Positions 8,570 to 56,679 of a stretch of 64,000 nt of DNA are shown one piece after another. The stretch spans positions 37,093-101,092 of the forward strand of contig JAVQSZ010000007.1 of the NCBI GenBank assembly GCA_033581555.1. The letters are read 5' to 3'. Under the pieces are notes generated by a model. That model was not told the origin of the DNA. It was given only the letters and a program-made list of their open reading frames with translations, and made no database searches. Both the position numbers and the translations under genes were made by a program. Source of the DNA: Nitrososphaerota archaeon (GTDB lineage: Archaea > Thermoproteota > Nitrososphaeria_A > Caldarchaeales > Calditenuaceae). Numbering within the stretch: the first letter of the stretch is position 1; each line of letters starts with the position of its first letter.

Positions 8570-8671
8570 GCCGCGTCGATCTCCTCCGCCCGAGATAAAT
8601 CGTCCGGCCCTCCTCGCCCTTCGGGCCTCCACGGAAACGCTTAACTAACACGCACGGGTCGTCTAGATCGC

Positions 8672-9568: not shown

Positions 9569-9569
9569 T

Positions 9570-10124
9570 ATGGCGAGGAGGACCGCGAGGGCAGGAGCGC
9601 GCAGGGCAGCGGTCCCGCTCTCGAAGGTACCAGTGCGGGTCAAGGTCAACGGCGTCGAGTACTCCCACGAGGTCGAGCCTAGGCTCCTCCTGGTCCACTA
9701 CATCAGGGACGTCCTGGGATTGACCGGGACGCACATCGGCTGCGACACCTCCAACTGCGGCGCCTGCACCGTGCTGATGAAGGGCCCGTGGGGTGACGAG
9801 TGGAGGGCGGTGAAGTCCTGCACGCTCTTCGCCCCGCAGGCCGATGGCGCGGAGATAATCACGGTCGAGGGCCTCGCGAGGGACGGCGAGCTCCACCCGC
9901 TCCAGAAGGCCTTCTGGGAGCACCACGCGCTCCAGTGCGGCTACTGCACTCCCGGGATGATACTCGCAGCGCTGGGCTTCCTCAAGATCAACCCGAACCC
10001 GACAAGGGACGAGATAAAGAGGGGGATCGCAGGCAACCTCTGTAGGTGCACGGGTTACGTGAACATCGTCAAGGCGGTCGAGGCCGCAGCGAAGGAGATG
10101 CGGGAGAAGGGGAGCTGGATCTAG
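9570..10124 (+). CDS. Molybdenum hydroxylase 2x[2Fe-2S] subunit (CoxS/CutC-like)
   Basis: [12 protein letters not shown]...KSC and QCGYCTPG...NLCRCTGY. Confidence 0.96.
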
Positions 10125-20376: not shown

Positions 20377-20513
20377 TCGGGCACTACCGAGCCCAGCCGG
20401 TATATTTGGGTGATCGGGCTCCATCGACCTCTCAACGGACCTGCCTCGTTCGACGTGCGTCTTAACATAGATTGATTTGTTGGCTAATCCTCGGGCCGTC
20501 AAAGGTGCGGTGC

Positions 20514-21917
20514 TTGCCGACGCTGCTCGACTCGACGCTCAGGGAGGGCGAGCTCTTCAAGTTCCTCACTCCGGAGAGGAAGCTGAGGGTCGCGGAGGTC
20601 CTCGCGGAGCTCGGGCTGAGGAGGGTCGAGGTGACCGTGGACTACCCGCCGAAGACGACCGAAGCCGACGTCAGGCCGGTCGTCGAGCTCCTGAGGGACA
20701 GGGGAGTCGAGGTGGTGATGCACGGCAGGGCCTACCGGGCGGACGTCGAGGCCTTCGCGAAGTACGACGTCGACGGCGTCGCAGTCTACGTCGCGGTCTC
20801 GAGGGTCCACAGGGAGCACAAGCTGAAGGGCATCTCGGAGGAGGAGGTAATGGCGAGGTTCCTCGAGGCGGCAGAGCTCTGCAGGTCCCAGGGCTACAGG
20901 TACGTCAGGGCGACGCTGGAGGACGTCTCACGGCTCTTCGTCGAGGGGCAGTTCGGGGAGCTGGACAGGCTGCTGGAGTTCACGAGGGAGCTCCGGAGCG
21001 CGGGCGCCACGATGGTCAGCCTCCCCGACACCAGCGGCCTCATGACTCCCCCGATCGCGGCCTCCTTCGTCAGGTACTGCAGGGAGAGGTCAGCCCTCCC
21101 GATCGCCTGCCACTTCCACAACGACTACGGCATGGCCTCCGCCAACACGGTGACCGCGGTGCTGGAGGGCGCGGAGGAGGCCCACGTCACGCTCTTCGGG
21201 ATCGGCGACAGGAACGGGATCGCGGACCTCTACGAGGTGGTCGCGACGCTCCACGACGTCCACGGCATCGACCTCGGAGTGAGGAGGGAGAGGCTGGCCT
21301 GGGCCTACGCGGAGTTCTCGAGGGTCGCGGGGATCAGGCACTATTGGAGGCACCCGTTGGCCCCCGAGTCGAGGACGGTCAGGGCCGGAGTCCACCAGTC
21401 GATGGTGATCAAGAGGCCCGACGGCTACATACCCCTCGGGAAGCTGAGGTTCGACTTCGACGGGGTCGCCCTGGCCCCGACGCCGTACATCAGCCACAAG
21501 GTCTTCCTCGACATCGCGTCGAGGCTGAACGCTTCGCTCGACGAGGAGACCGCGAGGAGGGCGGCGGAGTTCGTCGCGGCCCACTACGTCGCCAACGGCG
21601 GGAAGGTCAGGTTCCAGGAGCTGAAGGAGGGGCTGGAGGCGGTGCTCGGGCTCCGGATCCCGGAGGACCTCCTCAGGGCCTACTTCGGGATCGAGAAGGT
21701 CTACATCATGGTCAAGCTGAGGCCCCAGTCCGACGTCTCGAGGGTCGTCTCGGAGGTCTCGGGGTGGCAGGACGTCGAGGCGGTCGACGAGGTCTACGGC
21801 GACATGGACCTCGTGATCGTCGGGAGGGCGGCCTCGGGGCCCAACAACCTCGTCGAGAGGGTCAGGAGGGCGCTCCTCGGTATCGCGGAGGAGATGAAGG
21901 TCCTGGTGACCGACTGA
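20514..21917 (+). CDS. Homocitrate synthase-like DRE-TIM enzyme with C-terminal RAM (Lrp/AsnC ligand-binding) domain
   Basis: LDSTLREGE, LPDTSG, HFHNDYGMASAN, GIGDRNGI, AGVHQ; C-terminal YIMVKL...VDEVYGDMDLVI; TTG start 20514. Confidence 0.82.
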   Translation: MPTLLDSTLREGELFKFLTPERKLRVAEVLAELGLRRVEVTVDYPPKTTEADVRPVVELLRDRGVEVVMHGRAYRADVEAFAKYDVDGVAVYVAVSRVHREHKLKGISEEEVMARFLEAAELCRSQGYRYVRATLEDVSRLFVEGQFGELDRLLEFTRELRSAGATMVSLPDTSGLMTPPIAASFVRYCRERSALPIACHFHNDYGMASANTVTAVLEGAEEAHVTLFGIGDRNGIADLYEVVATLHDVHGIDLGVRRERLAWAYAEFSRVAGIRHYWRHPLAPESRTVRAGVHQSMVIKRPDGYIPLGKLRFDFDGVALAPTPYISHKVFLDIASRLNASLDEETARRAAEFVAAHYVANGGKVRFQELKEGLEAVLGLRIPEDLLRAYFGIEKVYIMVKLRPQSDVSRVVSEVSGWQDVEAVDEVYGDMDLVIVGRAASGPNNLVERVRRALLGIAEEMKVLVTD

Positions 21918-21953
21918 GCCCGGCTACGGTTTATTGACGGGGCGGGACGCGGA

Positions 21954-22979
21954 GTGCCGATGATCGAGCTGAAGGGCAAGGACCTGATCTCGAGCCAGGA
22001 CTGGTCCCTTGAGGAGATCGGCGCGGTCATGGACCTAGCGAGGGAGCTCAAGGTGATGAGGTACGCCGGGAACGTCCCGGAGCTCTTCAAGAACAGGACC
22101 TTCTTCATGATCTTCTACAACACCTCCACGAGGACTAGGGCGAGCTTCGAGGCCGCTGCGACGATGCTTGGAGGGCATGCGCAGTTCATCGACTTCGCCA
22201 CCACCAGGGGCGCGGAGGGCGAGTCGGTCAAGGACATGGCGAAGATGTACGAGAGGTTCGGGCACGCACTTGGGGTGAGGATATTGGAGTCAGCGGTCGA
22301 CTACGTCTACGGGAGGGGGAACGCGGTGGTGAGGGAGTACGCGGAACACGCGAGGATCCCCGTGGTCAACATGGCCGACGACATGTTCCACCCCTCCCAG
22401 GCGATCGCTGACCTCTACACGATTTCGGAGAGGTTCAACTGGAGGCCGGAGGGGAAGAGGTACGTCATCATGTGGGCCTACAGCGACCGGATAAGGAGCT
22501 GGGGTAGCGTCCAGGACGAAATGCTCCTCGCGACACGCTACGGGATGGACGTCGTCCTCTGCTACCCGCCGGGCTTCGACCTCGACGAGAGGCTCGTGAA
22601 GGTCGCGGAGCAGAACGCCAAGGACTCCGGCGGCTCGCTCGAGGTCTCCCACGACCCCAAAGAGGCGCTGAGGGGGGCCCACGTCGTCTTCCCGAGGAGC
22701 TGGGCGAGCCACGCCTGTGTCGTCGAGGGGCTGAACAGGTTCGGGAGGGAGAGGGAGCTGGAGCTCCACAAGAGGTACCAGGACTGGAGGCTGACGAGGG
22801 AGCTGACCGACCTGATGGACAGGCACGGGATCGTGACCCACGTCCTCCCGGTCTTCAGGGGCCAAGAGGCCGACGACGACGTCATGGACGGCCCCAGGAG
22901 CGTCATCTACGACCAGGCCGAGAACCTGCTCTACGTCAGGGCAGCGATCCTCGCCCTGATCGCGGGCACAGGGCCCTAA
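21954..22979 (+). CDS. ATC/OTC-family carbamoyltransferase, YgeW/knotted-like
   Basis: STRTR carbamoyl-phosphate motif, HPSQAIADL, HVLP; WAYS loop and PRSW replace the OTC GD..N and DxxxSMG motifs. Confidence 0.85.
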   Translation: MPMIELKGKDLISSQDWSLEEIGAVMDLARELKVMRYAGNVPELFKNRTFFMIFYNTSTRTRASFEAAATMLGGHAQFIDFATTRGAEGESVKDMAKMYERFGHALGVRILESAVDYVYGRGNAVVREYAEHARIPVVNMADDMFHPSQAIADLYTISERFNWRPEGKRYVIMWAYSDRIRSWGSVQDEMLLATRYGMDVVLCYPPGFDLDERLVKVAEQNAKDSGGSLEVSHDPKEALRGAHVVFPRSWASHACVVEGLNRFGRERELELHKRYQDWRLTRELTDLMDRHGIVTHVLPVFRGQEADDDVMDGPRSVIYDQAENLLYVRAAILALIAGTGP

Positions 22980-23028
22980 GGGGTTCCGGCGATTCCGTTA
23001 TCTCCGGGTCCAGGGGGCTCTCCGGGGA

Positions 23029-23712
23029 ATGGTGCTGACCGCGAAGGTCTTCGACGTCAGGGCGAAGTCGAACCTCGGTGCGATAGCCCAGAAGCTGAAG
23101 GACTTCAGGAGCGTCGAGGTCGTGAAGGAGGACGACACCGATGTCGAGCTGGTCACGGACGTCCACGACGTCAGGGGCGAGAGGGACAGGGTCTCCGGGG
23201 TATTCAGCAGGGACAAGCTGATCAGGGTCCGGCAGAGGGGGAAGGTGGTCCCGATCGTGAAGACGATCGACGCGTACATCGAGTTCAGGGACAGGGGCGA
23301 CAAGCTGCTGCTCGTGGTGATGCAGGAGAAGCACTTCGCCAACTACGTCGCGACCACCCTCAGCAACGCCCTCTTCCTCGACTTCAAGTCGATCGTCGAG
23401 GCGAGGATCCCCCACGAGAGGCTGGTGGAGCTCCACAACCGTAACCCTGAGTCGACGCGGCTGATCTGGTTCGACCAAGTCGACTACCCGGGGGTCGACA
23501 AGCTGGCCCTCGCGGGGCCCTCGCTGATGGACACCTCGATGTACGATGAGGCCCTCAGGCACGGGAAGATCTGGTACATCGTCTACGCCACGAGGGAGGG
23601 CGGGATGATCTACGGGCTGACTAGGAACTGCGTCGTCACTGCCTTCAGCAGGATCTCCGAGTCCGACTTCCTCGACTACGTGGTCAGGGAGGTACTGCCG
23701 CTGATAGAGTAA
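23029..23712 (+). CDS. Hypothetical protein (227 aa, alpha/beta)
   Basis: Long ORF with strongly host-like codon usage; no family recognised. Confidence 0.85.
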   Translation: MVLTAKVFDVRAKSNLGAIAQKLKDFRSVEVVKEDDTDVELVTDVHDVRGERDRVSGVFSRDKLIRVRQRGKVVPIVKTIDAYIEFRDRGDKLLLVVMQEKHFANYVATTLSNALFLDFKSIVEARIPHERLVELHNRNPESTRLIWFDQVDYPGVDKLALAGPSLMDTSMYDEALRHGKIWYIVYATREGGMIYGLTRNCVVTAFSRISESDFLDYVVREVLPLIE

Positions 23713-36873: not shown

Positions 36874-37362
36874 ATGTCCTCGAGCCCAGAGGACCTCAAG
36901 GGGAAGAGGGCGCCGGACTTCGAGCTCCCAACCTCCGACGGAAGGACCTTCAAGCTCTCCGAGGCCCTGAAGTCCGGGAGGTATGTCGTCCTCTACTTCT
37001 ACCCGATGGCCGACACTCCGGGCTGCACCAAGGAGGCCTGCGGCTTCAGGGACGCCCTCCCAGACCTCTCGCGGCTCGGGGCGATAGTGGTCGGCGTCAG
37101 CACCGACCCGCCGGAGAGGAACGCGAAGTTCGCTAAGAAGTACGGACTCAACTTCACCCTGCTCAGCGACGTCGACGGTGATGTCTCGAGGGCCTACGGG
37201 TCCTTCAACCCGGTCTTCAGGAAGTCGAGGCGCCACACGTTCGTCATCGCTCCCGACGGCACCGTGGTGGGCGTCTTCACGAAGGTCAACCCCGCGGAGC
37301 ACGCGAGAGAGGTCGAGGGGTTCCTGAGGGGTTTGGCCTCTCAGGCCCGGGCCTCGTCGTAG
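36874..37362 (+). CDS. bcp: Peroxiredoxin, BCP/PrxQ
   Basis: LYFYPMADTPGCTKEACGFRD. Confidence 0.95.
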   Translation: MSSSPEDLKGKRAPDFELPTSDGRTFKLSEALKSGRYVVLYFYPMADTPGCTKEACGFRDALPDLSRLGAIVVGVSTDPPERNAKFAKKYGLNFTLLSDVDGDVSRAYGSFNPVFRKSRRHTFVIAPDGTVVGVFTKVNPAEHAREVEGFLRGLASQARASS

Positions 37363-37796
37363 GCCTTCAGCCTCTCTACGTTGCCCCTCTCCGACTCGTC
37401 GATCGACTCGACCGAGAGCCAGGCGTCGACGATCTCCTTCGCGACCTGCGGCGAGGTGAGCCTCCCGCTCAGCGCGAGGACGTTCGCGTCGTTCCAGAGC
37501 CTCGCCCCCCTGGCGGTCTCCGAGTCGAAGCAGAGGGCTGCCCTGACTCCCCTCACCTTGTTGGCCGCGATCGAGACGCCGGTCCCCGTGTAGCAGACCA
37601 CGACGCCCCAGTCGACCTCGCCCTTGACGACCATCTCCCCCACTCTAGTCCCGACGTCGGGCCAGGGCTCCACCTTCCCCGTCCTGAGCGAGCCCAGCTC
37701 TATCACCTCGTAGCCCTTCGACCTCAGGTGCTCGACGACAGCCTTCGCCGCGGGGTAGAGGTCGTCAGCGCCGACGGCGACCCTCCTGCCCCTCAT
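37341..37796 (-). CDS. RpiB/LacA/LacB family sugar-phosphate isomerase
   Basis: CYTGTGVSIAANKVRGVRAALC...ARLWNDANVL. Confidence 0.9.
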   Translation of the reverse strand: MRGRRVAVGADDLYPAAKAVVEHLRSKGYEVIELGSLRTGKVEPWPDVGTRVGEMVVKGEVDWGVVVCYTGTGVSIAANKVRGVRAALCFDSETARGARLWNDANVLALSGRLTSPQVAKEIVDAWLSVESIDESERGNVERLKAYDEARA

Positions 37797-37803
37797 GGGG
37801 CTT

Positions 37804-38046
37804 TCAGCCCTCGATCGCCTTGGCTATGTCATCGACCGTCGGGAACTTGCCTCCGGCCGCCTTCCTCGAGTAGACGAGGTTCCCGTCGACGTAGACGTCG
37901 AAGGTCCCTCCGTCTCCGGTGTCGAGGGTCACCGAGAAGTTCTTGAGGTACTTGGTGCCGTACCTGTTCAGCAGCTCCGTCGCCAGCTGTGTGGCCTTGG
38001 GGAGGTGGCCGCAGGGGACGCAGTAGACGATCCTGACGTGCGGCAT
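37804..38046 (-). CDS. SelT/SelW/Rdx family redox protein (Cys form)
   Basis: IVYCVPCG...GGTFDVYVDGNLVYSRK...FP. Confidence 0.9.
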   Translation of the reverse strand: MPHVRIVYCVPCGHLPKATQLATELLNRYGTKYLKNFSVTLDTGDGGTFDVYVDGNLVYSRKAAGGKFPTVDDIAKAIEG

Positions 38047-38127: not shown

Positions 38128-38892
38128 TCACCTGAAGAGGTCCTCCTCCCTCGGCCTCACGATCGCCGAGGCGCCCGTCTCCGACCTCGTGTGGGGGTAG
38201 CCCCTGATCACGGCGACCGGTATGCCTTCGTCGGCGTTACCCATCACCAGCTCCGCGGCCGAGGCGATCTCGTCGGCGACGCAGATCTGCTTGCTCTGGA
38301 GGACCCTCCCGTAGAGGTCCGGCCTTCCCCTCAGGTCCAGTATCGGCTCGATGCCGCTGCAGCCGATCGCTACGTTGACCGCGCCCCTCCTGAAGGGCCT
38401 ACCGTGGCTGTCCGAGACGACCACCGCTACGTCCACTCCCTTCAGCTCCCTTATCCTCTCCCTGATCCTCCTCGCGGAGGAGTCGGGGTCGACTGGTAGG
38501 AGCGCGACATTCCCCTCGCCGACGTTGGAGAGGTCGACGCCGCTGTTCGCGCAGACGAGCCCGTGCCTCGTCTCGGTGATTATCAGCCCGTCGCCCCTTA
38601 TCCTCAGGACCTCTGCCGACTCCCTGAGAACGGCCTCGACGTGCCTCGGGTCCTTCCCAGTGACCCTCGCGATCCTCAGGGCCCTCTCGCTCGGCTCGAT
38701 CGAGGCGAGCGGCATCACCCGGCCCTCGGCCTTGGAGACGACCACCTGCGAGACTACCACGACGTCGCCCGTCCTGAGCCCGACGCCGAGCTCCTCCGCG
38801 GCCGAGACTATCAGCCCGGCCAGGTCGTCGCCCTCCTTCACCAGCGGGAGCCTGAGGCCGATGACCTCGACCCTCGGAAGGTCGCTGCGCAT
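38128..38892 (-). CDS. cofE: Coenzyme F420-0:L-glutamate ligase
   Basis: LPLVKEGDDL, VVSKAEG, CANSGVDLSN, SDSHGRPFRRG, ADEIASAA. Confidence 0.94.
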   Translation of the reverse strand: MRSDLPRVEVIGLRLPLVKEGDDLAGLIVSAAEELGVGLRTGDVVVVSQVVVSKAEGRVMPLASIEPSERALRIARVTGKDPRHVEAVLRESAEVLRIRGDGLIITETRHGLVCANSGVDLSNVGEGNVALLPVDPDSSARRIRERIRELKGVDVAVVVSDSHGRPFRRGAVNVAIGCSGIEPILDLRGRPDLYGRVLQSKQICVADEIASAAELVMGNADEGIPVAVIRGYPHTRSETGASAIVRPREEDLFR

Positions 38893-38900
38893 CCGCCCGG

Positions 38901-39242
38901 TCAGAACCCTAGGTCCTTAATCCTCTTCCCGGCCCTTCCCCGGAGGTTCAGCCTGATCTCCGGTATCTCCTCTGCGGCCTCGAAGGGCCTGGTCTCCTCC
39001 TTCGGCTTCACGAAGAGCGCGCACCTCCCCTCCGGCAAGAGCTTGAGCTGGGCGCAGGAGGCGTAGACGCACTTGAACCCGATGCAGGGCCCGTCAACCC
39101 AGTGGCACCAGGGCGGGTTCCTCCTGAAGTCGAGGGCCGGCTTCCCAGGAGCGACGAACTTCATGCACCTGAAGAACCTGCAGAGCGGGTTGCAGACGGG
39201 GGTCGGGTCTCGCGAGAGCGTCCACGGGACCTCCGCCGTCAA
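38901..39242 (-). CDS. Cys-rich hypothetical protein
   Basis: CNPLCRFFRC...WCHWVDGPCIGFKCVYASC...GRC (8 Cys); start TTG 39242 (alternative 39269); 8 bp upstream of cofE. Confidence 0.78.
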   Translation of the reverse strand: MTAEVPWTLSRDPTPVCNPLCRFFRCMKFVAPGKPALDFRRNPPWCHWVDGPCIGFKCVYASCAQLKLLPEGRCALFVKPKEETRPFEAAEEIPEIRLNLRGRAGKRIKDLGF

Positions 39243-45165: not shown

Positions 45166-45858
45166 TCAGCGGCCCAGCTCCAGCACCTCTTTCCCCTTCC
45201 CCACGAGTACGACGTAACCCCTGTTCGGGCAGAGTCCGACCTCGACCACTCCGGGGAGCGACTTGACCTCGAGCTCCATCGCCGCGACGTCCCCCAACTC
45301 CCCGACCATCAGGTCCAGGACGAAGTTCCCGTTCTCGGTGACCACCGGCCCCGCCTTCCCGGTGCCCTCCCTCAGCCTCGGCGAGAGGCCCATCGAGTTG
45401 AAGAGCCTGAGGAGGTAGTCGACCGCGAAGGGGAGCGCCTCGACGGGCACGGGACCCCTCAGCCTCTCGACCAGCTTCCCGGAGTCGCCGAGCAGGACGA
45501 CCCTCCTCGACGCCCTCATCAGGACCTTCTCCCTCGCGACCGCCGCTCCCCCTCCCTTGACCGAGTTCCCCTTAGGGTCGACGAGGTCGAAGCTGTCGAC
45601 GTAGACGTCGGGCTCCGGGCACTCAGCGAGGCCCGTCACCCTGAGCCCCGCCCTCCTCGCGACCTCCTCCGACTGCCTCGAGGTCGGTATCGCGGCCCTC
45701 ACGACCCTCGCGGCCCCCCTCTCCCTCAGGACCCTCCCGAAGACCTCGACCGTTGACCCGGTCCCGAGACCCAGGTAGACCTCCCCGCCCATCGAGAGGA
45801 CCAGCTCGACGGCCTTCGCCGCAACCTGCTCCCTCTCGAGCTCCGTCGCGGGCCTCAA
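45166..45858 (-). CDS. rpiA: Ribose-5-phosphate isomerase A
   Basis: LGLGTGSTV, PTS, KGGGAAVAREK, VPVE, GPVVTENGNFVLD, PGVVEVG; DSFDL replaces DGADE; start TTG 45858 (alternative ATG 45894). Confidence 0.88.
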   Translation of the reverse strand: MRPATELEREQVAAKAVELVLSMGGEVYLGLGTGSTVEVFGRVLRERGAARVVRAAIPTSRQSEEVARRAGLRVTGLAECPEPDVYVDSFDLVDPKGNSVKGGGAAVAREKVLMRASRRVVLLGDSGKLVERLRGPVPVEALPFAVDYLLRLFNSMGLSPRLREGTGKAGPVVTENGNFVLDLMVGELGDVAAMELEVKSLPGVVEVGLCPNRGYVVLVGKGKEVLELGR

Positions 45859-45963
45859 CGCCGCCAGACCTCCTAAGGCCCTGATGAACCTCATCCCACT
45901 CCCGGGCCGTCCGGGTCTCCCGGAAAACGTCAAAAGGCACCCACTGGACTTCATCCGGGACCC

Positions 45964-46419
45964 ATGCCGACGTGGCGTTATTCGGTTCAGGGGCTCGACG
46001 AGACCAGGACCGTGAAGGCGAGCCTTAGGGAGGTCGACGCCTCTCCGAAGTGGACGAGGGAGGTCTGTGCGGCGATCAAAGGGATGGACCTCGAGGACGC
46101 GAAGAGGCTGCTCGAGGACGTGATGGCCAAGAGGAGGATGATCCCCTACAGGAGGTACAGGAAGCTGAGGGCCCACCACTCCGAGACGAAGGGCCCCGGC
46201 GGATACCCGGTCAAGCCCGCCAAGCTCCTCCTCAAGCTCCTCGAGTCGCTCGAGGCGAACGCGGAGTTCAAGGGCCTGGACACGTCGAGGCTCAGGATCG
46301 TCCACGCCGCGGTCCACAAGGGACGGGTGATGGAGAGGTACTTCCCGAGGGCCTTCGGGAGGGCCTCGCCCCACAACAGGACGCTGATCCACGTCGAGGT
46401 CGTCGCGGAGCAGTACTGA
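45964..46419 (+). CDS. rpl22: 50S ribosomal protein L22
   Basis: SPKWTREVC, IKGM, IPYRRY, GGYPVK, NAEFKGLD, PRAFGRAS, HVEVV. Confidence 0.96.
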   Translation: MPTWRYSVQGLDETRTVKASLREVDASPKWTREVCAAIKGMDLEDAKRLLEDVMAKRRMIPYRRYRKLRAHHSETKGPGGYPVKPAKLLLKLLESLEANAEFKGLDTSRLRIVHAAVHKGRVMERYFPRAFGRASPHNRTLIHVEVVAEQY

Positions 46420-46422
46420 GCC

Positions 46423-47199
46423 TCAGAGCTCGTACGCCTCCCTCAGCCTGTTCCCGAGCCTCTCGGCCCTGAGGTGCTCGAGCCTCTTCGGGTCCAGCTC
46501 AATGGAGATCACCCCCGGCTCCTCTCCCGCCTGCTCCTCCCGCGTCAGCACGACGCCTCCCCTCAGCTCGACCAGGTCGACCGCGAGGGACCTGCCGTTG
46601 AAGGAGCTCCCGAGGACGACGTTGCACCCCACCACCTGACATCGGTTCTCGAGGGCCCTCGCCCTGAGGTAAACGTGCCAGGGCTCGACGCCCTCCCTCC
46701 TTATCCTCGAGGGGTTCAGCAGCAGCTCCGCGCCCTTCAGGACCAGCGTCCTCGCCGCCTCGGGGTAGACGACGTCGTGGCAGACCAGTATCCCGAACCT
46801 CACGCCAGCGGCCTCGAAGGTCCTGAACTCCATCCCCCTCCTCAGCACCAGCCTCTCCTCCTTGTAGGGGTGGACCTTGTCCTGGTGCCCCACCACCTCC
46901 CCTCCCGGCGAGATGACCGGCACCCTCGCGGCCGGCCTGCCCTCGACCAGCGCGTAAAGCGCCCCCGCGACGACCCACCCGTTCAGGGACCTCGCGACCT
47001 CCCTGAGCCTCGAGACTGCCAGCTCCGAGGCCTCGACCGCGCCGGCGACGTCCGCGATCGGCGCCCTGTGAATCCACGCCTCGGGGAGGATGTAGAGCTC
47101 GGCCCGGGCATCGGACTCGGTCATCGCCCTGCAGGCCCACTCAATCGTCTCCGTGGGGCTCTCGAGCACCGGCGTCTGGACGATCGCGACCCTGACCAA
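46423..47199 (-). CDS. Carbon-nitrogen hydrolase (nitrilase superfamily)
   Basis: LPE, DKVHP, GILVCHDVVYPE (E-K-C triad), RARALEN. Confidence 0.92.
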   Translation of the reverse strand: MVRVAIVQTPVLESPTETIEWACRAMTESDARAELYILPEAWIHRAPIADVAGAVEASELAVSRLREVARSLNGWVVAGALYALVEGRPAARVPVISPGGEVVGHQDKVHPYKEERLVLRRGMEFRTFEAAGVRFGILVCHDVVYPEAARTLVLKGAELLLNPSRIRREGVEPWHVYLRARALENRCQVVGCNVVLGSSFNGRSLAVDLVELRGGVVLTREEQAGEEPGVISIELDPKRLEHLRAERLGNRLREAYEL

Positions 47200-49536: not shown

Positions 49537-50433
49537 ATGAGCACCAGATACGACGTGTTGCGGGAGACGGAGCTGCTCTTCGGTCACCTCAGGCTCCCGG
49601 CCTTCAGGGTCTACAGGCCCACGACGGTCGAGGAGGCCGTCGAGAGGTTGAACAGCTCGCCCGGCTCGCTCCCGATCTCCGGCGGGACTTCGCTCCTCCC
49701 AGCGCTCAGGCTCGGCACGGCTAAGGCCGAGGAGCTCGTGGACCTCTCGTACGTCAGGGACCTCCACGGCTTCACGAGAACGGCCGACGGGGTCGCGGTA
49801 GGCGGGATGACCAGGCACTCGGACCTGCCCGGCGCGCTCGAGGGCCCTGCGGCCGAGCTGGTGAGGTCCTTCCTCCGCAAGCACACCTCCCCCCACATCG
49901 CGAACCTCGCGACGGTGGGGGGCTCCGTGGGCGTGGGGCTCTCGACCGAGGACCTCCTGACTGTCGGGCTCGTCCTCGACGCGAGGGTCAAGCTCGCAGG
50001 TCCCGACGGGGCCTCCGAGGTCGACCTGAGCTCCTACCTATCCTCTAAGAAGTCCTACGCCGGGACGGTCGCGACCCACATCCTCTTCCCACGCAGGCCC
50101 GACGGATGGGTCTACGGTTTCGAGAAGGTCTCGCTCTCCGTCTCGAAGTGGCCGCTGGTGGCCGTGGCCTTCGGCCTTAAGGTCTCGGGGCGCGTCGTCG
50201 AGGACTGCAGGCTCTCGGCCGCCTATAGGTCGGGGAACGTCCAGGGCAGGCTTCTCGAGGCCGAGGCGGTCCTTAAGGGCTCCAGGCTGGACGGCTCGAC
50301 GATCGAGCGAGTCGTCGAGGCGGCGAGGCGGGACGTGAGGCCCGAGGGGAGCAACTTCGCCTCTGAGGACTACAGGCGGGACGTGACCGCGCGGCTTCTG
50401 GGCGCGGGGCTGCTGGAGGTGCTGGGGCAGTGA
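49537..50433 (+). CDS. Xanthine dehydrogenase family FAD-binding subunit
   Basis: RPTTVEEA, ISGGTSLL, IANLATVGGS, FASEDYRR. Confidence 0.9.
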   Translation: MSTRYDVLRETELLFGHLRLPAFRVYRPTTVEEAVERLNSSPGSLPISGGTSLLPALRLGTAKAEELVDLSYVRDLHGFTRTADGVAVGGMTRHSDLPGALEGPAAELVRSFLRKHTSPHIANLATVGGSVGVGLSTEDLLTVGLVLDARVKLAGPDGASEVDLSSYLSSKKSYAGTVATHILFPRRPDGWVYGFEKVSLSVSKWPLVAVAFGLKVSGRVVEDCRLSAAYRSGNVQGRLLEAEAVLKGSRLDGSTIERVVEAARRDVRPEGSNFASEDYRRDVTARLLGAGLLEVLGQ

Positions 50434-50891
50434 ACGTCAGCCTAAGGGTCAACGGGCGGACCTATCAGCTCGACGTCAGGGAGAACGAGCGGCTCGTCGA
50501 CGTGCTCCGCTACAGGCTCGGACTGATGGGCGTAAAGGAGGGCTGCGGCGAGGGTGACTGCGGTGTCTGCGTCGTCTTGATGGACGGCGTTCCGGTCCAC
50601 TCCTGCCTGGTGCTGGCCTACAGGGCCGACGGCAAGGAGGTGACGACCGTTGAAGGGATAGGCTCCGCGGAGTCCCTCCACCCGGTCCAGAGGGCCTTCG
50701 TCGACGCGGGTGCGGTCCAGTGCGGCTACTGCATACCAGCGGCAGTCCTCGTGGCCAAGTGGCTCCACGACGGGCGCGTCTCCTCCAAGGAAAAGGTCAG
50801 GTGGGCCTTCAGGGGGATCATGTGCAGGTGCGGGAGCTACGTGAGGTTCGAGGAGGCCGTGAGGCTGGTCGCCAGGAGGTCGGGCACGTGA
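50430..50891 (+). CDS. Xanthine dehydrogenase family 2x[2Fe-2S] subunit
   Basis: GCGEGDCGVC...SC; QCGYC...CRC. Confidence 0.94.
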   Translation: MNVSLRVNGRTYQLDVRENERLVDVLRYRLGLMGVKEGCGEGDCGVCVVLMDGVPVHSCLVLAYRADGKEVTTVEGIGSAESLHPVQRAFVDAGAVQCGYCIPAAVLVAKWLHDGRVSSKEKVRWAFRGIMCRCGSYVRFEEAVRLVARRSGT

Positions 50892-53242
50892 TGATGGACG
50901 AGGAGGTCATCAGGAGGTTCGAGGAGATCCTCAGGGCGAGGGAGTTCTACGTCGTCGGGAAGAAGGTCGCGAGGGTCGACGCGCTCGACGCGGTCCTTGG
51001 CAGGCCCATGTACACCTCCGACCTCCTCGCGGACAGGCCGCTGGTCGTGAGGGCCGTCAGGTCGCCCCACCCGCACGCTCTGATCAAGAGGGTCGACTCC
51101 TCGGCGTCGAGGGCTGCCGAGGGGGTCGTGGACGTGATCACCCACAAGGAGATTCCCGGAGCTAACCTGGCGGGCTCCCTGACCCCCGACAGGCCCCTGC
51201 TCGCGGTCGACAGGGTCAGGCACTTCGGCGAGGCAGTCGCGCTGATCGTCGGCGTCAGCGAGGAGGCGGCGGAGGAAGGGGTCAGGAGGTTCAGGGTCGA
51301 GTACGAACCGGTCCCGGCGGTCTTCGACCCCGTCGAGGCCCTGGACCCGAGGGCTCCTAAGGTCCAGGAGCAGGGGAACCTCGTCAACCACGTCAAGATC
51401 AGGAAGGGGAACGTCGAGGAGGGGTTCGCGAGGTCCGACGTCGTCGTGAGGAACGAGTTCAGGACGCCCTTCATGGACGGCCTGCCGATCGAGATCGAGG
51501 TCGCGTACGCGTACCCTGACCTCGACGGAGGCGTCACCTGCATCGCCTCGATGCAGAACCCGTTCGACGTCCACGCGAGGGTCTCCGCGATCCTCGGCCT
51601 CCCGCCGGAGAAAGTGAGGGTCGTCCAGGCAGCCACAGGGGGAGGCTTCGGGCCGAAGTCCGACGAGTCTCCGATAGACGTCGCAGCCTACGCGTCGCTC
51701 GCTGCGGTCAGGAACGGGAGGCCGGCCCTCGCGACCTTCACCAGGGAGGAGGCGATGGCGGTCCAGACGAAGAGGCACAGGTTCGTGATCGTCAACGAGA
51801 CCGGCGCGACATCGGACGGCAGGCTGACGGCGTGGAGGTCGACGCTCTACGCGGACACCGGCGCCTACATCTCCAAGGGCCATTTGGTCATCCAGAGGGC
51901 GACCTTCCACTGCACCGGGCCCTACGAGGTCCCGAACGTCTGGGCTGACGGGTACGCGGTCCTCACGAACAACACCGTCGCAGGGTCCACCAGGGGCTTC
52001 GGGGCTCCGCAAGCGCTCTTCGCGGCCGAGGTCCAGATGGACATCCTCGCGAAGAGATTGGAGATGGACCCGTTCGAGCTTAGGGCCAAGAACGCCCTCA
52101 GGCCAGGATCGCTCACAGCGACGTCGCAGAGGATCGACGACGACGGACTTGTGAGGTGCATCGAGAGGGCCAGGTCGCTCTCGAGGTGGTCCGAGAGGAG
52201 GTCCGAGTACAGGAGTTTCAACTCCGCCGGAGGGAGGTACAGGAGGGGGATGGGCGTCGCGCTCCTCTACCACGGCAACACGCTGGGCCCCGAGGGAGAC
52301 GACTACGCGATCGTTCACCTGAGGGCCGAACCCGACGGGACGCTGAAGCTCCACACCGGGCTGACCGAGTACGGAACCGGCGCGATCACGTCGCTCGCGA
52401 TGATCGTGGCGGAAGTCTTCGGGCTCAGGGTCGAGGACGTCCATGTCCTGAGGCCCGACACCAGCGCGGTCAAGAACCCGGGGCCCACGGTCGCGTCGAG
52501 GACGACGGTGATCGGCGGGAGGGCGGCCCTCGCGGCGGCCGCGAAGCTGAGGGAGAGGCTCGAAGGAGTTGCCGCGGAGCTCCTCGGGTGCAGGAGGGAT
52601 GAGGTCGAGTTCTCCGGCGGAAGGGTCAGGGTCAGAGGGGACCCGTCGAGGTCGGTGAGCTTCGCGGAGCTGGTGAGGAGGGCGAGGTCGATCGGCGTCG
52701 AGACCTCCGTGGAGGGCTACTACAAGGCCCCAGAAACGAGGTGGGACAAGGAGACCGGACAGGGAGCTCCCTACAACCAGTACACGTTCGGGGCGCTGGT
52801 CTCGGAGGTCGAGGTCGACACGGTCACGGGGCTCGTGAGGGTGATCAGGATGACCGCGGTCTACGACGTCGGCCGCGCCATCAACCCCCTTGGCCTCCAG
52901 GCGGTGATCGAGGGCGGGTCGATCATGGGACTGGGCCACGCGCTGACCGAGGAGATGCTCCACGTCAACGGAATACCCGTCACGCTGGGCCTGCAGGGCT
53001 ACCTGATACCGTCCTCCGCTGAGGTCCCCGAGGAGGTCGTCCACGAGGTCGTCGAGTCTCCCGGCCCGATCGGCGCGCTGGGCGCCAAGGCGATGGGCGA
53101 GATACCGGTGGTTCTCCCGATGGCCTCGATAGCGAACGCGGTCGCCGACGCGGTCGGCGTCCACATCAGGGAGACACCCTTAAAGCCAGAGCTGGTCCTG
53201 AGGGCGCTCGAGGAGGTCGGGCTGGTCTGGAGACCGAGGTGA
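50888..53242 (+). CDS. Xanthine dehydrogenase family molybdopterin-binding subunit
   Basis: RSPHPHA, GGGFGPK, TRGFGAPQ, GPTVASR, DVGRAINP, GAKAMGE (catalytic Glu); GTGA overlap at 50888. Confidence 0.95.
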   Translation: MMMDEEVIRRFEEILRAREFYVVGKKVARVDALDAVLGRPMYTSDLLADRPLVVRAVRSPHPHALIKRVDSSASRAAEGVVDVITHKEIPGANLAGSLTPDRPLLAVDRVRHFGEAVALIVGVSEEAAEEGVRRFRVEYEPVPAVFDPVEALDPRAPKVQEQGNLVNHVKIRKGNVEEGFARSDVVVRNEFRTPFMDGLPIEIEVAYAYPDLDGGVTCIASMQNPFDVHARVSAILGLPPEKVRVVQAATGGGFGPKSDESPIDVAAYASLAAVRNGRPALATFTREEAMAVQTKRHRFVIVNETGATSDGRLTAWRSTLYADTGAYISKGHLVIQRATFHCTGPYEVPNVWADGYAVLTNNTVAGSTRGFGAPQALFAAEVQMDILAKRLEMDPFELRAKNALRPGSLTATSQRIDDDGLVRCIERARSLSRWSERRSEYRSFNSAGGRYRRGMGVALLYHGNTLGPEGDDYAIVHLRAEPDGTLKLHTGLTEYGTGAITSLAMIVAEVFGLRVEDVHVLRPDTSAVKNPGPTVASRTTVIGGRAALAAAAKLRERLEGVAAELLGCRRDEVEFSGGRVRVRGDPSRSVSFAELVRRARSIGVETSVEGYYKAPETRWDKETGQGAPYNQYTFGALVSEVEVDTVTGLVRVIRMTAVYDVGRAINPLGLQAVIEGGSIMGLGHALTEEMLHVNGIPVTLGLQGYLIPSSAEVPEEVVHEVVESPGPIGALGAKAMGEIPVVLPMASIANAVADAVGVHIRETPLKPELVLRALEEVGLVWRPR

Positions 53243-53249
53243 TCGGCGC

Positions 53250-54209
53250 CTGACCGGTCAGCTCTTAGTCGTCGCGCTTGGAGGGAACGCGCTCCTCCAA
53301 AAGGGCCAGAGCGGGTCCTTCGAGGAGCAGTACGGCAACGTAGTCGAGACAGCGAAGTACCTCGCCGACCTCGTTGAGAGGGGGTACAGGCTGGTCATCA
53401 CCCACGGCAACGGCCCCCAGATCGGTGCGCAGATGCTCAGGCACGAGGCCGGCCGAAAGCTCTACGGAATACCGCCCTTCCCGATGGACGTCTGCGGCGC
53501 CGAGACGCAGGGCTTCATCGGGTACATGATCCAACAGGCCCTCAGGACCGAGCTCAAGCGCAGGGGGATAGACAAGTACGTGATCACACTGATAACGAGG
53601 GTGATCGTCGACCCCGAGGACCCGGCCTTCAGGAACCCGACGAAGCCGGTGGGGCCCTACTACACCGAGGAGGAGGTGGCGAGGTTCAGGGCAGAGCACC
53701 CCGAGTACGTCTTCAGGGAGGACAGGGCGAGGGGAGGTTGGAGGAGGGTCGTCCCGTCCCCGGACCCGAAGATCATCGCGGAGAGGCACGCGATCAGGAC
53801 GCTCGTCGACGCGGGGTTCATCGTCGTCGCCTGCGGCGGCGGAGGGATCCCGATCATCGAGAGGGACGGCTGGAGGGCCGAGGGGATCGAGGCGGTGATC
53901 GACAAGGACCTGGCCAGCGAGCGGCTCGCGACCCTCATCAGGGCCGACAGGCTGGTCATACTGACCGACGTCGACGGGGCCTACGTCAACTTCGGGAAGC
54001 CCGACCAGAGGAGGCTCGGGTGGGTGACCGTGAGCGAGCTGAAGAGGTACTACGAGGCGGGGCACTTCGAGTCCGGCAGCATGGGCCCGAAGGTCCTCGC
54101 GGCCATAAGGTTCGTCGAGTCCGGCGGGAAGGAGGCGATCATCACCGAGAGGCGGAATGTCCTCGGCTCCGTTGAGGGCGAGGAAGGCACCCACGTCGTC
54201 CCCGGGTAG
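53250..54209 (+). CDS. arcC: Carbamate kinase (probable CTG start)
   Basis: Frame extends upstream of the ORF-track ATG to give LLVVALGGNALL...ITHGNGPQIG; also PTKPVG, RRVVPSP, GGGGIP, AVIDKD, GSMGPKV. No in-frame ATG/GTG/TTG before VALGGNA; GAGGTGA sits 7 nt before CTG 53250. Confidence 0.92.
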   Translation: MTGQLLVVALGGNALLQKGQSGSFEEQYGNVVETAKYLADLVERGYRLVITHGNGPQIGAQMLRHEAGRKLYGIPPFPMDVCGAETQGFIGYMIQQALRTELKRRGIDKYVITLITRVIVDPEDPAFRNPTKPVGPYYTEEEVARFRAEHPEYVFREDRARGGWRRVVPSPDPKIIAERHAIRTLVDAGFIVVACGGGGIPIIERDGWRAEGIEAVIDKDLASERLATLIRADRLVILTDVDGAYVNFGKPDQRRLGWVTVSELKRYYEAGHFESGSMGPKVLAAIRFVESGGKEAIITERRNVLGSVEGEEGTHVVPG

Positions 54210-54274
54210 CTCCAACAGGCCCTTTCCCTGTCCGCGCAACCGCTTTAGTGAGGCGACTCCCTCGACTGACGGCG

Positions 54275-55684
54275 ATGCGGAGGTCGGAGGTCGGCGTCTT
54301 CGGGCTCGGAGCGATGGGCGAGGGCTTCGCGCTCAACCTCGCGGGGAAGGGGCTGAGGGTCTCGGTATACAACAGGACGCCGGAGAGGACGCGGGAGTTC
54401 GCCGCCAGAGTCCCTGAGGGCCACGAAGTCTCGCCGACGTACACCGTTGAGGAGTTCGTGAGGTCCCTCGAGAGGCCGAGAAGGGTCTTCGTCTTCGTCA
54501 AGGCCGGCCCCCCTGTCGACGAGGTGATAGGGTCCCTGCTCCCGCACCTCGAGGAGGGGGACGTCGTCGTCGACTGCGGGAACTCCCACTTCCGGGACTC
54601 TGACAGGAGGCAGAGAGAGCTGGGCTTGAAGTCGGTCGAGTTCGTCGGGATGGGCGTCAGTGGGGGATACGAAGGCGCGCTGAAGGGGCCCTCGATCATG
54701 GCCGGAGGCTCGCTCCCGGGCTACTCGGAGCTCGAGGACGTCCTGAAGAGGGTCGCGGCCGACTTCCGAGGAGAGCCCTGCGTTGGGTACTTCGGGCCCG
54801 GGGGCGCGGGCCACCTCGTCAAGACGGTCCACAACGGGATCGAGTACGCGCTGATGGGCTCGATCGCCGAGACCTACCACCTTCTCAGGGAGGCGCTGAA
54901 CATGACCTACGACGAGCTCTCCGAGGTCTTCGGTGAGTGGTCGGGGGGCGAGCTCTCCTCTTTCCTCGTCGAGGCGACCGCTCGCGTCCTCGCGCACAGG
55001 GAGGACGGGGAGCACCTGATCGAGAAGGTCCTCGACGTGGCCGAGCAGAAGGGGACCGGCATCTGGACCAGCCAGCTCTCCCTCGAGCTAGGGGTCCCCG
55101 CCCCGTCGATCGACGAGGCCGTCCACTACAGGTTCGTCAGCGCGAGGAGGGACCTGAGGTCCGCGTACTCGAGGCACTCGTGCGGCGTGAGGCCGACGAG
55201 GGAACCCGACAGGCAGGAGCTCCTGGAGGCAGCGAGGTCGTCGCTCTACCTCACCCACCTCGCCTCCTACGCCCAGGGCCTCCTCCTCCTATCCGAGGCC
55301 TCGAAGCGGCTCGGGTACGGGTTCGACCCCGCGGAGGCCTTCAGGGTCTGGAGGGCTGGGTGCATCATCAGGTCCAAAGTCGTCGAGAGGGCCTACTCCG
55401 CCTTCGAGTCGACGTCAGGTGACCGGCTCGGCCAGTTCCTCGAGGAGTTCTCTGGGGACTTCAGGCACGGCGTCGCGGGCTGGAGGAGCTTCGTCTCTAC
55501 CGCGGTCAGGCTCGGCGTCCCGGTCCCGGTCACGTCTTCAGCGCTCAACTGGTTCGCGTCGATCACGTCGGGATGGATCGCGGCCAACCTAGTCCAAGCC
55601 CTCAGGGACTACTTCGGGAGGCACGGGTTCTACCGCGTCGACAGGCCTGGGAGCTTCACCTCGAGCTGGGGGAGGGGTCCCTGA
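54275..55684 (+). CDS. gnd: NADP-dependent 6-phosphogluconate dehydrogenase (long, decarboxylating type)
   Basis: GLGAMG, YNRT, VKAG, DCGNS, GVSGG, GHLVKTVHNGIEY, QKGTG, WRAGCIIRS, QALRDYFG. Confidence 0.95.
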   Translation: MRRSEVGVFGLGAMGEGFALNLAGKGLRVSVYNRTPERTREFAARVPEGHEVSPTYTVEEFVRSLERPRRVFVFVKAGPPVDEVIGSLLPHLEEGDVVVDCGNSHFRDSDRRQRELGLKSVEFVGMGVSGGYEGALKGPSIMAGGSLPGYSELEDVLKRVAADFRGEPCVGYFGPGGAGHLVKTVHNGIEYALMGSIAETYHLLREALNMTYDELSEVFGEWSGGELSSFLVEATARVLAHREDGEHLIEKVLDVAEQKGTGIWTSQLSLELGVPAPSIDEAVHYRFVSARRDLRSAYSRHSCGVRPTREPDRQELLEAARSSLYLTHLASYAQGLLLLSEASKRLGYGFDPAEAFRVWRAGCIIRSKVVERAYSAFESTSGDRLGQFLEEFSGDFRHGVAGWRSFVSTAVRLGVPVPVTSSALNWFASITSGWIAANLVQALRDYFGRHGFYRVDRPGSFTSSWGRGP

Positions 55685-55710
55685 AGGCGCTCGGAGGGGT
55701 CTCGTGACCG

Positions 55711-56679
55711 TTGGACGTCTGGCTGCCCCGCGGCGGAGAGGAGGTCCTCGTCGAGCTCCCTCCAGAGGCGCGGGTCGAGTTCTACGACCCTGTGCCCGTC
55801 AGCGACCTCTCCGAAGCCCCGGACGTCAGGGCCGGCGAGCTGGTCGTCGTCGACGCGTCGCACCTCAGTCCCGAGTCGATCGCGGACCTCGTCGAGCGCC
55901 TACGTCCAGCGAGGCCGGTATTGACGACGTGGCTGGCCCACGGTTCCGCTCCGGACGCGTCGGTCCTCTCCCGTCTCAGGTCCCTGGGCCTAGCGACGAC
56001 CTCCGACGACTGGGCGGTGGCCGAGCTCCGGGACTCCGGCGAGCTGACCTACGTCTCGCCGCCCCTCGCGCTCCCTCAGCGGCTCTCCTCCCCTGAGTCG
56101 AGGGCCAGGGCGCTCCTGAGCTCCGTGGGACTCGACCCCGAGGGGAAGAGGGTGCGGGCCGTCGGCCTCGTCCTCTCGCGGGAAGGAGAGCTCAGGGGCT
56201 TCGCGGAGGCTGACAGGTTACCCGGGGCCGAGCTCCGCGGCGAGCACGACCTCATCCTCCTCTCGCCTGGCGGCTTCCCCTTCGATAGGACCCTCCTCCA
56301 GGTCCTCCTCTGCCTCGAGCCCTACGCGGCCCTCTGCAGAGAGCGGGGCGTGATCGGCGTCGTCGCCGAGTGCGCGGAAGGCCTGGGGTCGAAGAGGTTG
56401 CTGGAGGCCGTGCTCTCCGGGAACCGCCCCGCGGGGACCGTCGAGGGGGAGGCGCTCGGCTCGCTCGAGTCGGTCAGGGCGAGGGCCAGGGTCGTCGCAT
56501 CGGTCCCGCTCCCCAGGACCTACGTCGAGAGGGCCTTCGGGATGAAGCAGGCGCTAAGGCTTCAGGAGGCGGTTGCGGCCGCGACGAGGTTCGTCGGGAG
56601 GGAGATCAGGGCGGCGGTGGTGAGGTGCGCGTCGCTCAGGGCAGCGGCAGGAGGGGCTGAACGACCACGTACGTCATGA
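55711..56679 (+). CDS. Degenerate LarA (lactate racemase)-like protein; C-terminal domain recognisable
   Basis: LILLSPGGFPFDRTLLQ...GVIGVVAECAEGLGS; N-terminal half shortened. Confidence 0.6.
   Translation: MDVWLPRGGEEVLVELPPEARVEFYDPVPVSDLSEAPDVRAGELVVVDASHLSPESIADLVERLRPARPVLTTWLAHGSAPDASVLSRLRSLGLATTSDDWAVAELRDSGELTYVSPPLALPQRLSSPESRARALLSSVGLDPEGKRVRAVGLVLSREGELRGFAEADRLPGAELRGEHDLILLSPGGFPFDRTLLQVLLCLEPYAALCRERGVIGVVAECAEGLGSKRLLEAVLSGNRPAGTVEGEALGSLESVRARARVVASVPLPRTYVERAFGMKQALRLQEAVAAATRFVGREIRAAVVRCASLRAAAGGAERPRTS

Follow-up and report, generated by a model that had tools for sequence, protein, structure and literature searches.

The anaerobic conversion of urate to pyruvate with a gain of ATP was elucidated in 2025, for gut bacteria only in the main texts of the two papers (Li et al., PMC12507026; Liu et al., bioRxiv 10.1101/2025.04.24.650524). 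According to these texts, XdhD-YgfM (DOPDH) reduces urate to 2,8-dioxopurine, YgfK or UacX dearomatises the ring, and SsnA and HyuA open the rings to give 2,3-diureidopropionate; YgeW then phosphorolyses one ureido group to carbamoyl phosphate, from which YqeA makes ATP, YgeY hydrolyses the other ureido group, and YgeX gives pyruvate. Here, we describe a four-gene operon at positions 49537-54209 of a 64,000-nucleotide stretch (the window) of contig JAVQSZ010000007.1 from a Nitrososphaerota archaeon of the Calditenuaceae. It encodes a molybdenum (Mo) hydroxylase and a carbamate kinase, and it is probably what the window contributes to a catabolic pathway for purine rings that, to judge from gene families and gene order, is homologous in logic and in most of its parts to the bacterial reductive urate/2,8-dioxopurine pathway. 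No archaeal version of the pathway was found in a literature search, and the string 'archae' is absent from the main texts of both pathway papers, a statement that does not extend to their supplementary cluster tables; this agrees with an earlier sequence-only reading of the window, which knew of no characterised archaeal example.

Two variations reported for bacteria are relevant here. All gut strains that bear the cluster show a selenium-cofactor trait (SelD, YqeB, and YqeC; Liu et al., bioRxiv 10.1101/2025.04.24.650524), and a putative F420 luciferase-family reductase was described beside SsnA in Chloroflexota on bioinformatic grounds only, the reductase not being tested there (Li et al., PMC12507026). 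Outside purine catabolism, phosphorolytic transcarbamylases and carbamate kinases yield substrate-level ATP in the arginine (ArcA-ArcB-ArcC), agmatine (PTC), and oxalurate (AllFGH-AllK) fermentations; in our genome, by contrast, no arcA was found, the transcarbamylases adjoining the kinase are of neither the ornithine transcarbamylase (OTC) nor the PTC type, and an AllFGH-like set lies on another contig. Pyrococcus and Thermococcus possess a carbamate-kinase-like carbamoyl-phosphate synthetase, for which an anabolic role has been proposed. Our kinase shares with it the archaeal origin and the amino-acid-kinase fold, but here it is accompanied by a full CarB and clusters with catabolic genes.

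Carbamate kinase and candidate partner genes

The window is part of contig C7 of a 1.43-Mb metagenome-assembled genome (MAG) that is 90.6% complete. Its four tightly packed, co-directional genes encode, in this order, the FAD, 2Fe-2S, and Mo subunits of the hydroxylase and the carbamate kinase (Table 1). The kinase is a true ArcC: residues 6-317 of its 319 match the curated TIGR00746 equivalog with 413.1 bits (cut-off 358.25). It shares 46.6% identity with E. coli YqeA, and profile and protein searches of the whole MAG gave no second match. The sequence-only reading, which had proposed a dispersed purine/ureide energy pathway, saw no arginine deiminase gene nearby, and indeed arcA has no match in the whole 90.6%-complete genome; the kinase is therefore not part of an arginine deiminase route, which was rejected. 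Since the genome encodes a full CarB (1437 bits), the kinase is not needed as the sole source of carbamoyl phosphate either, the anabolic function that the same reading had set against its own proposal.

The genome was queried with the translated E. coli K-12 xdhA-to-uacT region. Contig C2 carries an SsnA-like gene, for whose product SsnA is the best-scoring family, a hydantoinase (TIGR02033, 445 bits, cut-off 393), an adenine-deaminase-like gene (438 bits, cut-off 472; the adenine deaminase of a relative reaches 574), a ThrC-like pyridoxal-phosphate (PLP) enzyme, a luciferase-like oxidoreductase, MoeA/MobB, and a transcarbamylase (C2_TC). A CysK-like PLP enzyme is encoded on contig C4, and contig C5 holds a further set, XdhCBA, beside a TRZ/ATZ deaminase; this set is the most XdhA/PucD-like enzyme of the genome (625 bits, cut-off 784). 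Ring-opening amidohydrolases, on which the sequence-only reading had made its proposal depend, are thus encoded. The luciferase-like protein matches best Mer-type NCBIfam models, with none exceeding the cut-off (198 against 276 and 193 against 349 bits), and an orthologue scores 240 bits on PF00296. Two genes for F420 biosynthesis are found, CofE in the window (38131-38916) and CofD elsewhere (C3:86296-87195; 288 bits, cut-off 257), and the luciferase-like enzyme may use this cofactor. An oxidative urate route was rejected, as no PF01014 uricase was found in the genome (other urate oxidase types were not searched).

There are four transcarbamylases in the genome: by motif one is of OTC type and one of aspartate transcarbamylase type, and the other two are C2_TC and a protein encoded in the window (winTC). 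The latter two are 40% identical to each other and share, in the alignment, YgeW-type insertions as well as the motifs WAYS and PK[SA]W; winTC retains STRTR and HPxQ. Orthologues of winTC (75-84% identity) adjoin the Mo and/or the kinase gene in 11 of the 18 kinase-centred loci of relatives described below. Judging from this conserved neighbourhood, winTC is a real pathway partner that has been displaced by 27 kb from the operon in this genome. The YgeW-like enzyme suspected in the window by the sequence-only reading therefore stands as regards its gene, motifs, and linkage, but not as a formal YgeW, as its scores will show. A C-N hydrolase, to which that reading had also pointed, does exist at 46426-47199, but was rejected as a pathway member, matching NCBIfam weakly (nitrilase, 72 against 500 bits) and occurring in no relative's cluster.

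Neither gene flanking winTC (20466-23709) goes with it in the clusters of relatives; one is similar to isopropylmalate/homocitrate synthases (HMGL-like, below all cut-offs) and the other is an open reading frame (ORF) of 250 residues without a family.

Gene clusters in relatives

Related genomes were surveyed for the same genes. As the counts run over kin that are not independent, they should be read as a pattern, without the weight of a statistical test; moreover, loci fetched with SsnA, the luciferase-like protein, or the kinase contain that query by construction, a bias that only the eight archaeal loci retrieved with the Mo subunit escape. Orthologues of the kinase (at least 48% identity) occur in 21 of 41 related genomes, this one included. 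The kinase is found in 15 of the 17 genomes that hold SsnA, the two misses being 66% and 73% complete.

In all five genus members holding the kinase, the Mo gene lies directly upstream of it in the same direction. Regions of 10 kb on either side of the kinase in 18 relatives, mapped with the proteins of this genome, contain a YgeW-like transcarbamylase in 13 cases, PLP enzymes in 13, the window-type Mo subunit in 10, SsnA in six, and the luciferase-like gene in six. The linkage to arcC and the joint occurrence with a YgeW-like gene, both of which the sequence-only reading had named as checks, are therefore conserved. Two loci of the same genus show the CysK-like gene, the FAD-FeS-Mo-kinase operon, and a convergent winTC, followed by a C5-type Xdh set with the TRZ deaminase. 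Eight loci of a neighbouring family, some of them cut by contig ends, have the luciferase-like gene, SsnA, FAD, FeS, Mo, and winTC in a row facing the kinase, ThrC-like, V4R, CysK-like, and C2_TC genes, with adenine deaminase at the outer edge in five of the eight.

Among the loci fetched with the Mo subunit, seven of the eight hold pathway partners and the eighth is a 1.9-kb contig; their titles read Ca. Caldarchaeales, Ca. Calditenuis, Ca. Caldarchaeum, and 'Nitrososphaerales archaeon'. The 22 loci fetched with SsnA at 60% identity or more have the luciferase-like gene adjacent in 20 cases (the other two lie at contig edges), a transcarbamylase in 14, and the kinase in 10. Another 57 archaeal SsnA loci (L155-L211) are more distant (47-56% identical) and carry, among others, Bathyarchaeia, Hadarchaeota, and Thor-/Promethearchaeota labels; a hydantoinase-like amidohydrolase lies within 10 kb in 33 of them and is mostly the sole partner kept. 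Two Hadarchaeota SsnA loci also hold a YgfK-like gene, 40% identical to E. coli YgfK.

When the luciferase-like protein served as the query, an SsnA-like gene was found within 6 kb in 49 of 80 loci. The loci include those of Anaerolineae (Chloroflexota), Thermoleophilia (Actinomycetota), Blastocatellia, and two haloarchaeal MAGs. Some of the bacterial loci (e.g., L247, L265, and L282) show two Xdh sets, a ThrC-like gene, transcarbamylases, and a carbamate kinase. In the haloarchaeal loci L271 and L274 (Natrialbaceae, Halobacteriales), the luciferase-like gene stands beside a CysK-like PLP enzyme and a YgeW-like transcarbamylase, and L274 additionally has carbamate kinase, ThrC-like, SsnA-like, and YgeY-like genes.

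Taken as a 2,8-dioxopurine cluster, the genes are thus co-localised in relatives, namely in the neighbouring-family loci and the 22 Nitrososphaeria SsnA loci, while in this Calditenuis-like genome the pathway is scattered over at least four places. The dispersed purine/ureide energy pathway of the sequence-only reading is largely borne out in this way, its parts lying on C2, C4, and C5 here and being clustered in relatives.

Proposed pathway

We propose the following course of reactions. The adenine-deaminase-like enzyme of C2 and the TRZ/ATZ-type deaminase of C5 would remove the amino groups of adenine and guanine, and the PucD-like C5 dehydrogenase would oxidise the products to urate; the C5 Xdh set and the deaminases would act as a feeder from adenine, guanine, and hypoxanthine. 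The Mo enzyme of the window, as an analogue of XdhD-YgfM (DOPDH), would convert urate to 2,8-dioxopurine, the ring of which would be dearomatised by the F420-dependent luciferase-like reductase in the stead of YgfK. The SsnA-like hydrolase and the hydantoinase would then open both rings to give 2,3-diureidopropionate, and the two YgeW-like transcarbamylases would phosphorolyse its ureido groups to carbamoyl phosphate, which the kinase of the window would use with ADP to form ATP, NH3, and CO2. Finally, the CysK-like and ThrC-like PLP enzymes would dispose of the C3 amino acid. Matched to the bacterial parts, the kinase would be the counterpart of YqeA, the CysK-like and ThrC-like enzymes would stand for YgeX, and the two transcarbamylases for YgeW, perhaps with YgeY as well. 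Within this scheme, the operon is rather likely to be the Mo-hydroxylase and ATP-harvest piece of an archaeal 2,8-dioxopurine variant that would be F420-linked, use two transcarbamylases, and apparently be independent of selenium.

The proposed system has several features in common with the bacterial pathway as represented by E. coli (xdhD-ygfM, ygfK, ssnA, hyuA, ygeW, yqeA, ygeY, as well as ygeX) and by DOPDH/DOPOR of C. sporogenes: a Mo enzyme of the xanthine dehydrogenase (XDH) family with a FAD subunit, terminal PLP enzymes that belong to PF00291, and the logic of turning ureido groups into ATP. Identities to the E. coli counterparts amount to 30% for the SsnA-like protein, 36% to HyuA for the hydantoinase, 31-33% to the knotted YgeW for the transcarbamylases, and 47% to YqeA for the kinase. 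In contrast to the bacterial pathway, there is no YgfK or UacX but an F420-type luciferase-like gene beside SsnA, two transcarbamylases are found with no YgeY in the clusters, and CysK-like and ThrC-like enzymes take the place of YgeX; the three-subunit Mo enzyme is not an XdhD orthologue and is probably selenium-independent, the host is thermophilic and probably aerobic, and the genes are dispersed in this genome. There is also a likeness to the Chloroflexota F420 variant, as the archaeal luciferase-like protein is 57-65% identical to those of Anaerolineae, Thermoleophilia, and Blastocatellia. That variant is confined to bacteria in the main text of Li et al. (PMC12507026); here it extends to Caldarchaeales, Nitrososphaerales-labelled MAGs, and two haloarchaeal MAGs.

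Evidence against the proposal and alternative readings

The family-level gene identities, the single kinase, and the conserved clustering are established; substrates and step directions are drawn from homology and synteny, and several observations weigh against the pathway as proposed. The Mo subunit exceeds no NCBIfam equivalog cut-off, which keeps it formally outside PucD and XdhA: it scores 479 bits on pucD (cut-off 784), 476 on XdhA (780), 462 on PRK09970 (916), 440 on 4-hydroxybenzoyl-CoA reductase (4-HBCR; 995), and 365 on glyceraldDH_alpha (790). Its alignment shows that the XDH-type RGFGAPQ motif, the KRH Arg, and the GEIP Glu are retained; at what we take to be the position of bovine E802, however, it has a Ser, which weighs against the proposal (active-site positions other than XdhD E606 are named by bovine numbering). 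An insertion peculiar to XdhD and holding E606, a residue linked to urate orientation (Li et al., PMC12507026), is absent. XdhD is, furthermore, a fusion of the Fe-S and Mo parts, which are separate genes in the window.

In a FastTree phylogeny of Mo subunits, a check named by the sequence-only reading, the window type falls into an archaeal clade of its own with 22 rows, apart from both XdhA and XdhD of E. coli; as many long branches are flagged, this tree serves only to separate the window-type, C5-type, and E. coli clades. Among solved structures, the top matches are 4-HBCR, nicotinate dehydrogenase, the D. gigas aldehyde oxidoreductase, and bovine XDH at similar scores, which therefore do not discriminate between substrates, and the assignment of a substrate to the Mo enzyme from its sequence was abandoned. 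In the 90.6%-complete genome, the best selD match reaches 43.6 bits (cut-off 125), YqeC has no match, and YqeB is matched partially, through its XdhC domain only. With no SelD over the cut-off and no YqeC match, the archaeal enzyme is probably not selenium-dependent. Because the E606 insertion is missing, the clade is separate, and selenium-cofactor genes were not found, these comparisons give no support for placing the window Mo subunit in the XdhD/DOPDH family or for its orthology to XdhD.

The partner genes raise further counterpoints. On the YgeW models TIGR03316 and NF005538 (cut-offs 500 and 453), winTC scores 142 and 147 bits and C2_TC 145 and 149; both score higher on N-acetylornithine carbamoyltransferase than on YgeW, winTC reaching 224 against a cut-off of 288 there and 208 against 306 for ornithine carbamoyltransferase. 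The SsnA-like protein likewise remains below its cut-offs (350 against 444 on NF005540; 325 against 455.5 on TIGR03314). Of the genes that the sequence-only reading had suggested to look for, an SsnA-like gene and a hydantoinase were found, but ygfK and the NCS2 permeases have no match in the genome, and ygeX and ygeY have weak ones; yqeC, mocA, and the permeases XanQ, UacT, and GhxQ are without a match too. No CofH turned up in the 90.6%-complete MAG, and the organism may be devoid of FO synthase or import a precursor. It looks aerobic, with a Rieske/cytochrome b and a copper protein, whereas the known pathway is described in anaerobes, and the partners are dispersed over C2, C4, C5, and a site 27 kb upstream in the window. 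Two genera depart from the common gene set: g4 combines the kinase and transcarbamylases with two PLP enzymes, a hydantoin racemase, and a hydantoinase-like gene, but shows no SsnA match (3 genomes) and no Mo-family match (one genome), and g9 has the kinase with neither SsnA nor YgeW-like transcarbamylases.

The best surviving alternative exchanges the roles of the two Xdh types, making the window enzyme an ordinary hypoxanthine/xanthine dehydrogenase or purine hydroxylase and leaving the urate/2,8-dioxopurine step to the C5 type. Neither archaeal Mo clade groups with E. coli XdhD in the FastTree phylogeny, one relative (G034, locus L050) has a C5-type XdhCBA in the place of the window type beside winTC, the kinase, the ThrC-like gene, and C2_TC, and some Nitrososphaeria clusters (L142 and L154) hold only the C5 type beside the luciferase-SsnA pair. 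We nevertheless regard the exchange as unlikely: the C5 type scores far higher on the PucD/XdhA models (625 against 479 bits) and has a guanine-deaminase-like gene for a neighbour, as expected of a classical XDH, while the window type lies directly 3' of the luciferase-SsnA pair in neighbouring-family loci (seven kinase loci and others).

A little less probable still is a module for a non-purine N-heterocycle or ureide, such as a 5-substituted hydantoin, a pyrimidine-derived ureide, or a nicotinate-like ring, that would share the carbamoyl phosphate/ATP end. The Mo subunit scores nearly as high on 4-HBCR as on the XDH models and finds this enzyme and nicotinate dehydrogenase among its top structures, the transcarbamylases are not YgeW equivalogs, and the gene content of g4 would suit such a module. 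Adenine deaminase, the guanine-deaminase-like TRZ gene, and the PucD-like XDH inside the same clusters argue for purines instead, as does the pairing of SsnA with the luciferase-like gene, which is tied to 2,8-dioxopurine reduction in Chloroflexota (Li et al., PMC12507026).

It is also quite improbable that the kinase mainly serves another source of carbamoyl phosphate, or acts anabolically as proposed for Pyrococcus, and follows the Mo gene by local accident. Contig C8 (2493-14541; L130) encodes a Bmp-type ABC transporter, a CoxL-like Mo subunit (carbon monoxide dehydrogenase group 5, 908 against 950 bits), an AllH-like protein, a 51-codon ORF, an FdrA/AllF-like protein, a cyclase, and AllG. 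This oxamate-carbamoyltransferase-like set is a candidate for a second carbamoyl-phosphate source, again a point against the proposal; as it includes no kinase, it would have to rely on the single one of the window. The kinase of g9 and the 6-phosphogluconate dehydrogenase that is the next gene after the kinase here fit such a role as well. In the loci of relatives, however, the kinase clusters with YgeW-like transcarbamylases in 13 of 18 cases and never with FdrA/AllG in the loci examined, CarB is present, and one kinase can serve both catabolic sources, which is compatible with the purine pathway.

Finally, a role of the Mo enzyme in sugar metabolism, as an oxidoreductase for aldehydes or glyceraldehyde, would suit the neighbouring genes for 6-phosphogluconate dehydrogenase, RpiA, and RpiB and its 365 bits on glyceraldDH_alpha, but is hardly credible, since this score is far under the cut-off and lower than those on XDH models, the sugar-gene surroundings are confined to a subset of the genus while elsewhere the operon stands among purine/ureide genes, and the XDH-type motifs are retained, unlike in the three CoxL-like paralogues.

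Structure of the operon and neighbouring genes

The window has a G+C content of about 65% and archaeal character, encoding the ribosomal proteins S25e and S19e, a class I lysyl-tRNA synthetase, deoxyhypusine synthase, and a protein of diphthamide synthesis. The first three genes of the operon are adjacent and show FAD_binding_5/CO_deh_flav_C, Fer2/Fer2_2, and Ald_Xan_dh_C/MoCoBD_1/MoCoBD_2 domains over the Pfam cut-offs, as a three-subunit Mo hydroxylase should. GTGA overlaps, noted by the sequence-only reading, were verified at both junctions (FAD/2Fe-2S and 2Fe-2S/Mo); the Mo gene has additional in-frame ATG codons at 50891 and 50894. The FAD subunit reaches no NCBIfam equivalog cut-off. Within the genus it shares only 44-45% identity with its orthologues, and with those of the neighbouring family 28-33%; the corresponding values of the Mo subunit are 78% and about 60%.

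Table 1. Features of the operon and the YgeW-like transcarbamylase gene of the window.
Feature	Coordinates	Strand	Evidence and remarks
YgeW-like transcarbamylase (winTC)	21918..22976	+	PF02729, PF00185
FAD-binding medium subunit, xanthine-dehydrogenase-family Mo hydroxylase, divergent	49537..50433	+	PF00941 97.6 bits, PF03450 47.2 bits
2Fe-2S small subunit	50430..50891	+	PF01799 80 bits, PF00111 32 bits; GTGA overlap at both ends
Molybdopterin-binding large subunit, xanthine-dehydrogenase type	50888..53242	+	PF01315, PF02738, PF20256
Shine-Dalgarno-like GAGGTGATC	53236..53244	+	Read from the sequence; 5 nt before the kinase CTG, overlaps the Mo stop codon
Carbamate kinase, sole genomic copy, predicted CTG start	53250..54209	+	TIGR00746 (arcC)

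The distance of 7 nt between the Mo stop codon (TGA, 53240-53242) and the kinase had been given correctly by the sequence-only reading, to which we add that the predicted start codon there is a CTG. The kinase frame is open from 53202, and its first ATG, GTG, or TTG comes only at 53433. As the conserved N-terminal VVALGGNAL lies 5' of that position with no such codon before it, the CTG at 53250 is the only plausible translation start that can be predicted, with the frame intact. Orthologues start at the same codon, which is TTG in a relative with 94% identity, GTG in another, and ATG in a further two. The sequence GAGGTGATC, presumably complementary to the 3' end of the 16S rRNA, also precedes the TTG start of the closest relative. 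Contigs from four public hot-spring runs of four studies span the CTG site and show no alternative letter; one of these runs holds a distinct strain with two differences near the CTG, and one of the four (X7) comes from the same study as X1, a possible source run of this DNA. The CTG therefore truly occurs in the population and is no artefact of assembly; being confined to 53100-53400 and to contigs, the comparison shows the presence of the CTG form and not the absence of variants.

Directly 3' of the kinase, at 54248-55684, lies a full-length NADP 6-phosphogluconate dehydrogenase gene (526 bits, cut-off 413), a position that again speaks against a dedicated purine locus; the two genes are adjacent in three genus members. 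RpiA and RpiB are encoded near the operon as well (45169-46422 and 37344-37823). Oxidative pentose-phosphate enzymes are uncommon in archaea. The following ORF of 323 residues (55708-56676) resembles lactate racemase (LarA) in the C-terminal domain alone, weakly at 30.7 bits, and looks like a truncated or divergent LarA-like protein.

The genome encodes five Mo large subunits, three of which are CoxL-like by motif and do not retain the XDH-type motifs. At 8645-10121, the window contains a second pair of FAD and 2Fe-2S genes with no Mo large subunit adjoining, close to the glyceraldehyde dehydrogenase beta/gamma cut-offs (315 against 350 and 253 against 290 bits); this pair may serve an orphan CoxL-like large subunit on C8, C5, or C3. 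Four relatives with genomes of 1.6-1.8 Mb (G001, G024, G027, and G034) show 11-16 matches each to the window Mo subunit, several of which contain stop codons and a few of which are fragments of one gene.

Implications

The thermophilic archaeal counterpart of the bacterial pathway would differ from it in three ways, namely in an F420-type reductase, in two transcarbamylases, and in selenium-cofactor genes that were not found. With two transcarbamylases in the place of YgeW and YgeY, the ATP yield may therefore be doubled. More tentatively, it is conceivable from the gene content that Caldarchaeales, some Nitrososphaerales-labelled MAGs with the same gene set, the two haloarchaeal MAGs, and Thermoleophilia all run a selenium-independent, F420-driven form in which two dedicated knotted transcarbamylases would phosphorolyse both ureido groups and two ATP per purine ring would be gained through one carbamate kinase, as compared with one in E. 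coli, where the second group is hydrolysed by YgeY. The SsnA-hydantoinase pair in Bathyarchaeia, Hadarchaeota, and Asgard-labelled MAGs hints at a route of great age and wide distribution among archaea.

For the Caldarchaeales, the proposed pathway offers a physiological role for their single carbamate kinase, as well as roles for two of the Mo-subunit matches that each of the four relatives holds in such number. If the wider, F420-driven form holds true, hot-spring and subsurface archaea would gain real energy from the scavenging of nucleobases.

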